From Escherichia coli (GTDB lineage Bacteria; Pseudomonadota; Gammaproteobacteria; Enterobacterales; Enterobacteriaceae), in assembly GCF_050920415.1 (NCBI RefSeq), contig NZ_CP169309.1: 64,000 nucleotides of DNA; one strand, 5' to 3'. How positions within the stretch are numbered: position 1 is the stretch's first letter; every line of letters starts with the position of its first letter. Shown piece after piece: positions 25,766 through 50,526 of the stretch. The notes beneath the pieces were generated by a model. It did no database searches. It saw nothing but the letters and a program-made list of their open reading frames with translations, and was not told the DNA's origin. Position numbers and translations under genes: made by a program.

Positions 25766-26097
25766 TCGCTTGTCCCGGACTAAGGATTTTAATACATAAA
25801 ATGATGTTCATTCGCTCGTGCTGGCGTCTAAAGAGAGCATGGTAGAGAGCATAAGAAATATCCACGCCGAAGATAAAATTTTCTCCATCGTCATCTAACC
25901 TATTAATTATTGTGCTTAATGTGGGTAAAATTAAGCAAATCTGGCAGGATGTCAGACGTCAAGAATGGAGAACAATAGTTCTCCATTCTTGTTTAAACCC
26001 TGATATTCCGGATATATTAAGAAACATAACGACTTAAATTATTACTTTGCAACAGAATATGATACAGCTGATGGTAATTTTAAAACCTTACTCAGTT

Positions 26098-28838: not shown

Positions 28839-28957
28839 TTTTCAGCACATTATTTCACATGATTTCTGGAAATCATCGTGAAAATGAATACGTTATGTTT
28901 TAATTTAATCCACATTAAAAATAATGTTTTATCCAATTTAGCTGAAATCTTATTTAT

Positions 28958-28991
28958 ACTTTGTACAATTTTAGCGTATATTGTACAAAGT
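28958..28991. promoter_or_regulatory. Perfect 11-bp inverted repeat ACTTTGTACAA-N12-TTGTACAAAGT upstream of bluR (candidate MerR-type operator)
   Basis: Seen directly; a third GTGTACAG lies at 29003..29010; about 50 nt upstream of the bluR ATG. Confidence 0.5.
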
Positions 28992-29042
28992 ATTATTGGG
29001 TCGTGTACAGGCGACGGAGATTTATGAGCGCAAGGAGGAATT

Positions 29043-47735: not shown

Positions 47736-48872
47736 ATGGGACAGAGTAAAAAATTGAATAAACAACCGAGTTCGCTTTCACCGCTGGTGCAATTGGCGGG
47801 AATTCGCAAATGCTTTGATGGTAAAGAGGTCATTCCCCAGCTGGATCTGACTATCAACAATGGCGAGTTCCTCACGCTGCTTGGCCCTTCTGGCTGCGGT
47901 AAAACAACCGTTCTTCGCCTGATTGCAGGTCTGGAAACTGTTGATTCCGGACGCATCATGCTGGATAACGAGGACATCACCCACGTTCCGGCGGAAAACC
48001 GCTATGTGAACACTGTTTTCCAAAGCTACGCACTTTTCCCCCACATGACCGTGTTCGAAAATGTGGCCTTTGGGTTGCGCATGCAAAAAACCCCCGCTGC
48101 TGAAATTACGCCCCGCGTGATGGAAGCCCTGCGGATGGTGCAGCTGGAAACCTTCGCTCAACGTAAACCGCATCAGCTTTCTGGTGGTCAACAGCAACGC
48201 GTCGCCATTGCTCGCGCGGTGGTTAACAAGCCTCGTCTGTTGTTGCTGGATGAGTCGCTCTCAGCGCTGGATTACAAACTGCGCAAGCAAATGCAGAACG
48301 AGCTGAAAGCGTTACAGCGTAAGCTTGGCATTACATTCGTGTTCGTAACTCACGACCAGGAAGAAGCACTTACCATGTCGGACAGGATTGTGGTGATGCG
48401 CGATGGTCGCATTGAGCAAGACGGCACGCCGCGTGAAATCTACGAAGAGCCGAAAAACCTGTTTGTTGCTGGGTTTATCGGTGAAATCAATATGTTTAAT
48501 GCCACGGTCATCGAACGTCTCGACGAGCAGCGCGTACGCGCCAACGTTGAAGGCCGCGAGTGTAATATCTACGTTAACTTCGGCGTTGAACCGGGGCAAA
48601 AACTGCATGTTCTGCTGCGCCCGGAAGACTTACGTGTTGAAGAGATTAACGACGACAACCACGCCGAAGGGCTGATTGGTTACGTTCGCGAGCGTAATTA
48701 CAAAGGCATGACGCTGGAGTCGGTTGTTGAGCTGGAAAATGGCAAGATGGTGATGGTCAGCGAATTCTTCAATGAAGACGATCCTGACTTTGACCACTCT
48801 CTCGACCAAAAAATGGCCATTAATTGGGTAGAAAGCTGGGAGGTCGTACTGGCTGATGAAGAACACAAGTAA
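47736..48872 (+). CDS. potA: Spermidine/putrescine ABC transporter ATPase PotA
   Basis: 378 aa; Walker [10 protein letters not shown] and ABC signature LSGGQQQR. Confidence 0.95.
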
Positions 48873-49719
48873 GTTCCAGAATGTAGTGATTGTCACTATT
48901 GTCGGTTGGCTTGTGTTGTTTGTCTTTCTGCCCAACCTGATGATCATTGGCACCAGCTTTTTGACCCGCGACGACGCCAGTTTCGTCAAAATGGTCTTTA
49001 CGCTGGATAACTACACGCGTCTGCTCGATCCGCTCTATTTTGAAGTGCTATTGCACTCGCTGAATATGGCGCTGATCGCCACCCTCGCCTGCCTGGTGCT
49101 GGGCTATCCCTTTGCCTGGTTTCTGGCGAAGCTGCCACACAAGGTGCGTCCGCTGCTGCTGTTTCTGCTGATTGTTCCGTTCTGGACCAACTCATTGATT
49201 CGTATCTACGGGCTGAAAATTTTCCTCAGCACCAAAGGCTATCTCAACGAGTTTTTGCTCTGGCTGGGCGTTATCGATACACCAATTCGCATCATGTTCA
49301 CGCCCAGTGCGGTGATAATCGGTCTGGTTTACATTCTGCTGCCGTTTATGGTGATGCCGCTGTACTCCAGTATCGAAAAACTGGATAAGCCGTTGCTTGA
49401 GGCGGCGCGCGATCTCGGTGCCAGCAAGTTGCAGACCTTTATCCGCATCATTATCCCACTGACGATGCCGGGAATTATTGCCGGATGTCTGCTGGTAATG
49501 CTGCCAGCGATGGGCCTGTTCTATGTGTCCGACCTGATGGGCGGTGCGAAAAACCTGCTGATCGGTAACGTCATCAAGGTACAGTTCCTCAATATTCGTG
49601 ACTGGCCGTTTGGTGCAGCCACCAGCATTACGCTGACTATCGTAATGGGCCTGATGTTGCTGGTTTACTGGCGCGCTTCTCGTCTGCTGAATAAGAAGGT
49701 GAGCGAAATAGGTGATTAA
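48856..49719 (+). CDS. potB: Spermidine/putrescine ABC transporter permease PotB (3' end possibly re-formed at a prophage junction)
   Basis: 287-aa membrane permease overlapping the potA stop; no potC follows, phage genes do. Confidence 0.85.
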
Positions 49720-49894
49720 TCCTTTATATTCAATGAAATAAGTGCACTTTTTAATATCTTGATTGCTTAAAGCAACAATGTTGTGGGTTTCATCAAAATC
49801 AATCAGTTACGTTCTAGTTTTGGAGAATGTTTTTTTAGGCTTTTTGTTAAAGGTTGTTATGCATAGACTCAATTAATAACCCTTGCCCTGCAGC

Positions 49895-49926
49895 CTCTCC
49901 CCGACAATTCCAATTGTCGGGGAGAG
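49895..49926. other. Near-perfect 15-bp-arm palindrome between potB and the phage tfa-like gene
   Basis: CTCTCCCCGACAATT-CC-AATTGTCGGGGAGAG; no flanking T-run. Confidence 0.5.
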
Positions 49927-49953
49927 CTTCGAACGCTAGTCGCAGCTAATCTA

Positions 49954-50526
49954 TTAGCAAATGCCAAACGCTCGAATTGAAGCCAAGTCATCCAGATTAT
50001 TCAGTTGTTCCTTCATCTCCCGCTGGCGTTCGTGGATTTTAAATCCCTCCGCCACCATGGCCACCATCATGGCATCGTTCAGCGCAATAAGTTTCTCCCT
50101 GGTCAGTACGACGTTGTTATTATCCGCATCAGTCCAGAAAAAACCCTCCGGAAGCAGTCCGGCCTGTGCTGCTGCAACCACGGGGGCAAGGCGTGACTGC
50201 GAGGTTTTTCCGCCATCAAAACGACGGCCATCAAACGTGAAAATAAACTCAACGTTTTCCTGACTGTCGCGCCATGCCTCAATTTCCCGCCTTTTGGCAT
50301 CCTTTGCCGCTGCAATAAGTTCCGGCGTGACGGTGAACGGGGCGATTTCGCCCCATTTCCCGCTTTGCAGCTCCTGCCAGATGTGCTGGCCTGTCGGGGC
50401 CATATCATCCTGTATGGCAGTATACAGGGCGAACTCCGTTTCACCTTCAAATAACACCTCGCAGTCAACCGCACCATTTTCAAGATAATGTGCGTTTCTG
50501 ATACCTTTCACCGCTCTGATTTTCAT
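49954..50526 (-). CDS. Putative tail fiber assembly/chaperone-like protein (positional call)
   Basis: ORF 49954..50541 directly downstream of and overlapping the tail fiber gene; not recognisably lambda Tfa. Confidence 0.45.
   Translation of the reverse strand: MKIRAVKGIRNAHYLENGAVDCEVLFEGETEFALYTAIQDDMAPTGQHIWQELQSGKWGEIAPFTVTPELIAAAKDAKRREIEAWRDSQENVEFIFTFDGRRFDGGKTSQSRLAPVVAAAQAGLLPEGFFWTDADNNNVVLTREKLIALNDAMMVAMVAEGFKIHERQREMKEQLNNLDDLASIRAFGIC

Follow-up and report, generated by a model that had tools for sequence, protein, structure and literature searches.

A conserved palindrome at the attachment-site boundary of lambda-like prophages in Escherichia coli potB

Introduction

How does a prophage that splits a host operon end the host transcript that it has truncated? 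The question is raised by prophages in potB, which leave potAB on one side of the phage genome and potCD on the other. The gene is already known as an integration locus from the literature on CFT073, which carries Phi-CFT073-potB (PMC4632033), and on O157 strains, where another potB prophage, PP_potB, has been described in clade 8 (PMC9997748).

At one such junction, within the 64-kb stretch of E. coli DNA analysed here (the window), a preliminary description had pointed to a strong palindrome lying between potB and the phage genes. It placed several readings side by side: a protein-binding site near att, a rho-independent structure serving a different transcript, or a REP-like insulator. Here we set out the anatomy of this junction, the folding of the palindrome, its variants in related prophages and its resemblance to known phage elements, and we weigh the explanations that these observations leave.

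Results

A lambda-like prophage in the 3' end of potB

To the left of the junction the window carries pepT (- strand), potA (+ strand) and potB (+ strand). To the right, all on the - strand, follow the tail-fibre assembly gene tfa (DUF4376), a tail-fibre gene and lom. According to the gene map, the prophage is inserted in the 3' end of potB (48856..49719, + strand) and rebuilds its C-terminus: the last codons and the stop codon are supplied by phage DNA (49702-49719), and the protein in the lysogen ends in ...NKKVSEIGD instead of the native ...NKKVELE. The last late gene of the phage, tfa (49954..50541, - strand), is convergent with potB, and in the lysogen the potB transcript heads towards the palindrome.

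The window is 100% identical to E. coli GB089 across the compared stretches. The GB089 prophage is about 48 kb long and lambda-like (Rac-like), with the gene order potC, int (- strand), xis, exo, then Q, the lysis genes, terminase, J, lom, stf and tfa, followed by the hairpin and potB. The 3' end of its int gene is thus directed at att.

The insertion divides potABCD, with potA-potB on one side (window 48856-49719) and potC-potD some 48 kb off (NZ_CP013663.1, contig L004, 1-2235). There, potC-potD lie directly downstream of int and in the same orientation. We found no terminator-like site between the int stop codon and potC, so expression of potCD in the lysogen may depend on a promoter in the prophage or in the att arm.

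The attachment site and its arms

Comparison of attR, in the window, with attL, in contig L004, identifies the att core as TGAATAA-G-AAGGTG at 49688..49701. The junction on the int side reads TGAATAA-A-AAGGTG, and the G/A difference between the two cores places the crossover in TGAATAA. In intact attP forms the core region carries TGAATAAGAAGGTGA.

Beyond the core lies the distal, P-type arm (49702..49894), which is phage DNA and is about 76-86% conserved among 48 potB-junction genomes. It holds a single copy of a putative Int arm-type site, GTTTTGGAGA (49817..49826, + strand), which is invariant in all relatives; counted from 49690, where the AATAAGAAGGTG core match begins, it sits at +127 bp. 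Near int, three tandem copies occur in the same orientation, at -83, -70 and -59 from 49690. This layout resembles that of lambda P'1-3 and of the P1/P2 Int arm-type sites, and we infer from it that the GTTTTGGAGA copies are arm-type sites for Int. The palindrome starts at +205 from the same core match, about 70 bp outside the outermost of these sites.

The distal arm also contains a short palindrome, AAGTGCACTT (49737-49752), about 45 bp from the core. The sequence there differs in the 80%-identity group of relatives, so it is probably not functional.

A perfect palindrome without a U-tract

The palindrome (49895..49926) reads CTCTCCCCGACAATT-CC-AATTGTCGGGGAGAG: two 15-nt arms that are 100% complementary and stand 2 nt apart, 27 nt from the tfa stop codon. 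An inverted-repeat search ranks it as the longest perfect inverted repeat in the window, ahead of two with 14-nt arms (25960 and 28956). The window contains the full pattern a single time, and 100 shuffles gave no match.

Both strands are predicted to fold. The minimum-free-energy structure of the palindrome pairs 13 of the 15 arm positions in + strand RNA and 14 in - strand RNA, each time around a 4-nt loop. For a 65-nt segment that includes the hairpin the folding energy is -28.5 kcal/mol (+) or -33.2 kcal/mol (-), and the 141-nt context of the hairpin is more stable than shuffled sequences (z = -4.3 and -5.1, respectively).

The stem-loop, G+C-rich and 13-14 pairs long, has the first hallmark of an intrinsic terminator and lacks the second, a U run, taken here as U in at least five of the eight positions immediately 3' of the stem. 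The bases 3' of the stem are CTTCGAACGC (+) and GCTGCAGGGC (-), the tails scored were CUUCGAACGC (+) and GCUGCAGGGC (-), and a terminator scan at the palindrome returned no hairpin followed by a T-run on either strand. The preliminary description was therefore right in both respects, the 15-bp perfect arms without a U-tract at a potB-prophage junction and the conclusion that this is no classical intrinsic terminator.

Directly 3' of the stem on the + strand is a tail, CTTC[A/G]A[A/G]C[A/G]C (49927..49936), that is conserved among relatives; homology to relatives with other tfa modules stops after it. Scanned against Rfam at E<=10, the stretch 49000-50600 gave chance-level matches alone, for instance to miRNA and lncRNA models.

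Several other structures were seen in the window. On the - strand, 49927-49976 is predicted to form a second stem-loop, UUCGAGCGUUUGG...CUAGCGUUCGAA, overlapping the stop codon of tfa and, in the direction of tfa transcription, directly preceding the main hairpin; judged by eye, it is partly retained in STEC316 and not in the CFSAN029787-type variant. The two palindromes with 14-nt arms (25960-25991 and 28956-28993) are both in the host part. The first listed is CAAGAATGGAGAAC-AATA-GTTCTCCATTCTTG followed by TTTAAAC; the other, ATACTTTGTACAAT-(10 nt)-ATTGTACAAAGTAT, is AT-rich and more operator-like in look.

Variants at related junctions keep the stem

A related distal arm at potB is present in 679 of 5,426 complete E. 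coli genomes. The preliminary description had suggested looking for the palindrome at other prophage junctions, and the search turned up the motif or a compensated variant at related potB junctions, while junctions at other integration sites with the same tfa lack it. The form seen in the window is shared by 21 E. coli genomes. STEC316 has CTCTCCCCGACTATT-CC-AATAGTCGGGGAGAG, in which an A:T pair has become T:A by a change on both sides (CAATT/AATTG to CTATT/AATAG), and strain M8 has CCTCCCCGACTATT-GG-AATGGTCGGGGAGG. Another form, CCTCCCCGACTAT-CTGA-ATGGTCGGGGAGG, occurs in 935 genomes and is found in H10407, in the ST131 genomes returned by the search and in one Stx1a phage. CFSAN029787 and UMNF18 carry GCCCTCCCAAC-(loop of about 9 nt)-GTCGGGAGGGC.

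When 10 distinct variants from the same spot were aligned, 96% of the cells in the 13 pairs were paired, compared with 42-60% in a control in which the partner column was slid. Compensatory changes, on both sides of the pair, affect 4 of the 13 pairs; the sample consists of 10 related sequences, and we take the covariation as supporting evidence and not as proof. Conservation is higher in the stem core CCCCGAC/GTCGGGG and in the tail CTTCAAGCAC than in the flanking sequence. This core is conserved beyond structural need, which could reflect sequence-specific recognition or merely recent common ancestry. The palindrome is thus a real, non-random and conserved structural element, for which a role is sensible but unproven.

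Searches with the window form and with the H10407-type form (21 and 935 genomes) found one hairpin locus per genome; the window form is reported at two places per genome since the palindrome matches itself on both strands. Outside complete genomes, a search of the phage collection in 'near' mode returned no match, and in 'distant' mode a single Stx1a phage record with the potB-junction form. Among viral contigs, the pattern TCCCCGAC-N4-12-GTCGGGGA gave about 120 matches, nearly all of them unrelated hairpins and many of them ordinary terminators; it was too unspecific to be informative, with contig L071 the sole family member among the matches. The arm-site pattern TCTRGTTTTGGAGAAWGNTTTTT, searched in species-representative genomes, gave four chance matches (cyanobacteria and others) and no relatives.

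Some copies lie elsewhere. The H10407-type hairpin with its flanks was found on plasmids at 6 of 938 places; the plasmid-borne copies could be phage-plasmids or captured prophage ends. Strain 2009C-3133 (contig L011, NZ_CP013025.1, 4991361-4994493) has the same distal arm, hairpin and tfaR away from potB, about 630 bp from cdtA-cdtB, which encode cytolethal distending toxin, and the sequence to the left of the core differs. The prophage may have entered a secondary site here, or it may be a rearranged one that carries cdt.

The hairpin follows the attachment site and not the late genes

The palindrome adjoins both the att arm and the end of the late operon, and comparison of related prophages indicates to which of these modules it belongs. 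Prophages in potB keep the hairpin beside differing terminal genes: the DUF4376 tfa, another tfa family, truncated tfa fragments or tfaR. In UMNF18 a late-control gene lies just past the tail-fibre gene, and in H10407-type prophages even the 60 bp on the att side of the hairpin cannot be aligned with the window. Conversely, a prophage integrated at yecD/E has a tfa that is 98.6% identical, followed by a different att arm without a comparable hairpin; the best hairpin at that junction reaches -11 to -14 kcal/mol, against -27 to -28 kcal/mol at potB.

In contig L213, at another host site, a related distal arm is found without this hairpin. Instead, about 40 nt further on, the contig carries a canonical intrinsic terminator (ACGTGCCC...GGGCACG, then TTTTTT) that is oriented from att into the phage and has a T-run on one side only. 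The persistence of the hairpin beside changing terminal genes, its absence at yecD/E and the terminator of L213 lead us to assign it to the att/int module. They suggest a need, at this position, for something that ends transcripts coming across att.

The same comparisons bear on the view that the hairpin serves the late operon alone, as a 3'-end stabiliser or terminator acting on the - strand downstream of tfa, and that its link to att is a by-product of its place at the prophage end. The hairpin does follow the tfa stop codon by only 27 nt, the - strand fold at least equals the + strand fold in the window and surpasses it by 7-9 kcal/mol in CFSAN029787 and UMNF18, and the second - strand stem-loop stands directly upstream. 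An explanation confined to the late operon fits poorly with the nearly identical tfa at yecD/E that does without a comparable hairpin, and with the retention of the hairpin beside unrelated or truncated tfa modules. The - strand also lacks a U-tract, the L213 terminator at the equivalent place faces the opposite way, and the commonest variant has U.G wobbles that would turn into A.C mismatches on the - strand. We consider this explanation possible but unlikely.

As to which strand does the work, the variant groups disagree. Those of M8 (L006), the H10407 type (L008) and L187, and the stem base of UMNF18 (L003), have U.G pairs on the + strand, which RNA tolerates and which correspond to A.C mismatches on the - strand; folding of these variants favours the + strand by 1-4 kcal/mol. 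The CFSAN029787 (L002) and UMNF18 (L003) variants favour the - strand by 7-9 kcal/mol, and the window's own hairpin folds slightly better there. Wobble pairs and folding energies thus give a mixed picture, and the working strand is ambiguous; lying between convergent units, a perfect palindrome could well work for both of them.

Topology on the circular phage and comparison with lambda

In the IMG/VR contigs L164, L186 and L187 the int stop codon, the three arm sites, the core, the distal arm and the hairpin are contiguous, as expected of an intact attP; L206 has the same arrangement and ends short of the hairpin. With the 3' end of int directed at att, int-sense transcription in the excised circle would continue over the core and the distal arm into the palindrome (the + strand of the window). 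On the circle the hairpin lies about 390 nt past the int stop codon, and a scan of the interval from that codon to the hairpin, distal arm included, found no terminator-like site. Both the prophage map and the intact attP contigs place the hairpin across the attP core from int, and integration separates the two.

This topology recalls the tI/sib region of phage lambda. In lambda, the tI hairpin CATTAGCGCAAG...CTTGCGCTAATTTTTTG directly follows the annotated 'int 1' (P1) site, across the core from int (NC_001416). In both phages the hairpin stands immediately outside the distal (P) arm, and in both the int-sense transcript can cover the site only when the phage is not integrated. The distance to the core is about 205-220 bp here and about 170 bp for lambda tI (NC_001416), and the hairpin is the stronger one here (-27 against -19 kcal/mol). 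Lambda sib, at that position, lowers the production of Int from pL read-through transcripts (PMC2951348, PMC5300877).

The two elements differ in other respects. The palindrome has no U-tract, hence it is no intrinsic terminator of the tI type, and no likeness to the lambda sequence was apparent by eye, nor did the 'distant' BLAST search of the phage collection bring up more than the Stx1a record. Folding of the reconstructed int-sense attP RNA gave a local stem of 12-13 pairs alone, with no extended duplex, so that a lambda-like RNase III substrate is not evident. A search of xis for the cII-type pI motif (TTGCN6TTGC) found none, and the regulatory logic of lambda may therefore not apply. Finally, the hairpin adjoins the last late gene, with no b region in between, and is therefore shared with the convergent late operon. 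The lambda element is matched in position and topology, and the match fails for the intrinsic terminator and for sequence homology.

These points decide how far the analogy can be carried. In its strictest form, a special case of an RNA hairpin belonging to the att module, the element would be a true retroregulator of the lambda sib type: read-through xis-int RNA would be cut by RNase III, the int message would decay from its 3' end, and, with the site separated from int by integration, induced prophages would make Int freely. Besides the shared placement across the core, just outside the distal arm, a perfect duplex of about 14 bp without a U-tract means that transcripts should read through it, as this mechanism supposes. 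Typical E. coli RNase III substrates are longer than this stem. The short stem, with no extended duplex predicted, the missing tI-type terminator within the hairpin, the lack of lambda sib similarity or of an Rfam match and the xis gene free of a cII/pI-type motif all weigh against it, and we regard a true sib as quite doubtful.

Binding-site and repeat explanations

The palindrome might work as double-stranded DNA that a dimeric protein binds at the attP edge; candidates would be a regulator of the phage, a factor accessory to recombination or a nucleoid protein of the host. Perfect 15-bp symmetry beside a recombination site would suit such a role, as would a stem core and tail (CTTCAAGCAC) conserved above their flanks. 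Half-site spacing is not fixed, however, since the arms of the relatives are 2, 4 or about 9 nt apart; the arms of CFSAN029787 and UMNF18 (GCCCTCCCAAC) differ in sequence yet stay complementary, and the commonest variant has asymmetric T/G arms. No arm-type motif is matched in the palindrome, about 70 bp beyond the last such site. Variable loops together with compensated stems favour a folded strand over a DNA site for a dimer, and we judge a protein-binding palindrome very unlikely. Of the earlier suggestion of a protein-binding site near att, the proximity to att stands and the protein binding is not supported.

We also considered whether GGAGAG in the right arm echoes the arm-type motif TTTTGGAGAG, and rejected the idea: the likeness extends over 6 nt only, and the CFSAN029787 and UMNF18 variants do not have it.

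A REP/BIME-like or miniature mobile repeat, or a functionless chance palindrome, shares with the element its extragenic place at an operon end and a palindromic, G+C-rich stem, but is next to impossible given a single copy in the window and one locus per genome (on which copy number REP or MITE identity was rejected), the lack of a REP consensus and of an Rfam match, the location in phage and not host DNA, the failure of any shuffle to reproduce the palindrome and its conservation at the same position, with compensatory changes, in diverged prophages.

Discussion

The reading that best accommodates these observations, and to which we give an even chance, is that the palindrome forms a hairpin of the att/int module of a lambda-like prophage in potB, one that defines RNA 3' ends or serves as an insulator. 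Most likely it is an ordinary transcript-end hairpin of the sort that lambda-like phages have at the boundary of attP, rather than an element of a new kind. The anatomy, the topology, the conserved structure with its compensatory changes and the link to the att module are observed; RNA as the active form, the strand that matters most and the biochemical mechanism we infer.

On this account of a transcript-end hairpin, three transcripts would meet the same structure. In the circular phage, the xis-int transcript would cross attP and reach the hairpin as its distal end. In the lysogen, where the hairpin is cut off from int, read-through from potA-potB would reach the stem before entering the tail-fibre genes (tfa/stf) in antisense. 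The convergent late transcript from tfa would fold the same hairpin, given the perfect palindrome, and could thereby be capped as well. The hairpin would in this way set RNA 3' ends and insulate two convergent units from each other. Two of the earlier suggestions come close to this picture. The rho-independent structure on a different transcript agrees well with a hairpin that faces transcripts crossing att, int in the circle and potAB in the lysogen. The REP-like insulator between potB and the phage genes survives as an insulator; its REP-like part falls with the single copy and the lack of an Rfam match.

The hairpin would most likely block 3'-to-5' exonucleases, mark a site of RNA processing, or terminate transcription weakly or with the help of a factor. 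The missing U-tract favours these three over a classical intrinsic terminator and, holding for either strand, means that termination is not to be assumed. Protective hairpins without a U-tract stand at the 3' ends of Rho-terminated or processed transcripts that have been trimmed back to a stable stem. The element described here is like them in its stable, G+C-rich stem just past a stop codon and between convergent genes; it differs in that it is inherited with the phage att module and not with the upstream gene. Bidirectional intrinsic terminators offer a further parallel, in that a palindromic stem between convergent transcription, here potB or int-sense on one side and tfa on the other, folds on both strands. 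The A-tract and T-tract that flank such terminators are absent here.

A more elaborate possibility is a dual-use boundary element that depends on the state of integration. In the free phage it would provide retroregulation of int without a terminator, through processing or decay at the U-tract-less stem; in the lysogen it would end the truncated and rebuilt potAB message and shield the tail-fibre genes, and the conserved stem would be read by a specific factor. We think this combination improbable and offer it as speculation.

If the transcript-end reading is right, prophages that integrate in potB carry their own lambda tI/sib-like boundary element, built without a U-tract. Of 5,426 complete E. 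coli genomes, roughly 680-935 have such prophages, among them H10407 and the ST131 genomes returned here, and the group extends to a Stx1a-converting phage. The locus would then provide a second natural example for how integration-dependent control of an integrase evolves. On present evidence, it amounts to a modest refinement of textbook phage biology, of use mainly for annotating prophage ends and the limits of attP.

Related integrases are also found next to other downstream regions. In the IMG/VR contigs L194, L196 and L204, integrases with 98-99% identity in the best-matching segment precede an unrelated sequence, which carries another U-tract-poor hairpin, AAAACCCCGG-CATCAA-CCGGGGTTCGG, about 70 nt past the int stop codon. 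These regions may represent a different att specificity with its own int-proximal hairpin.
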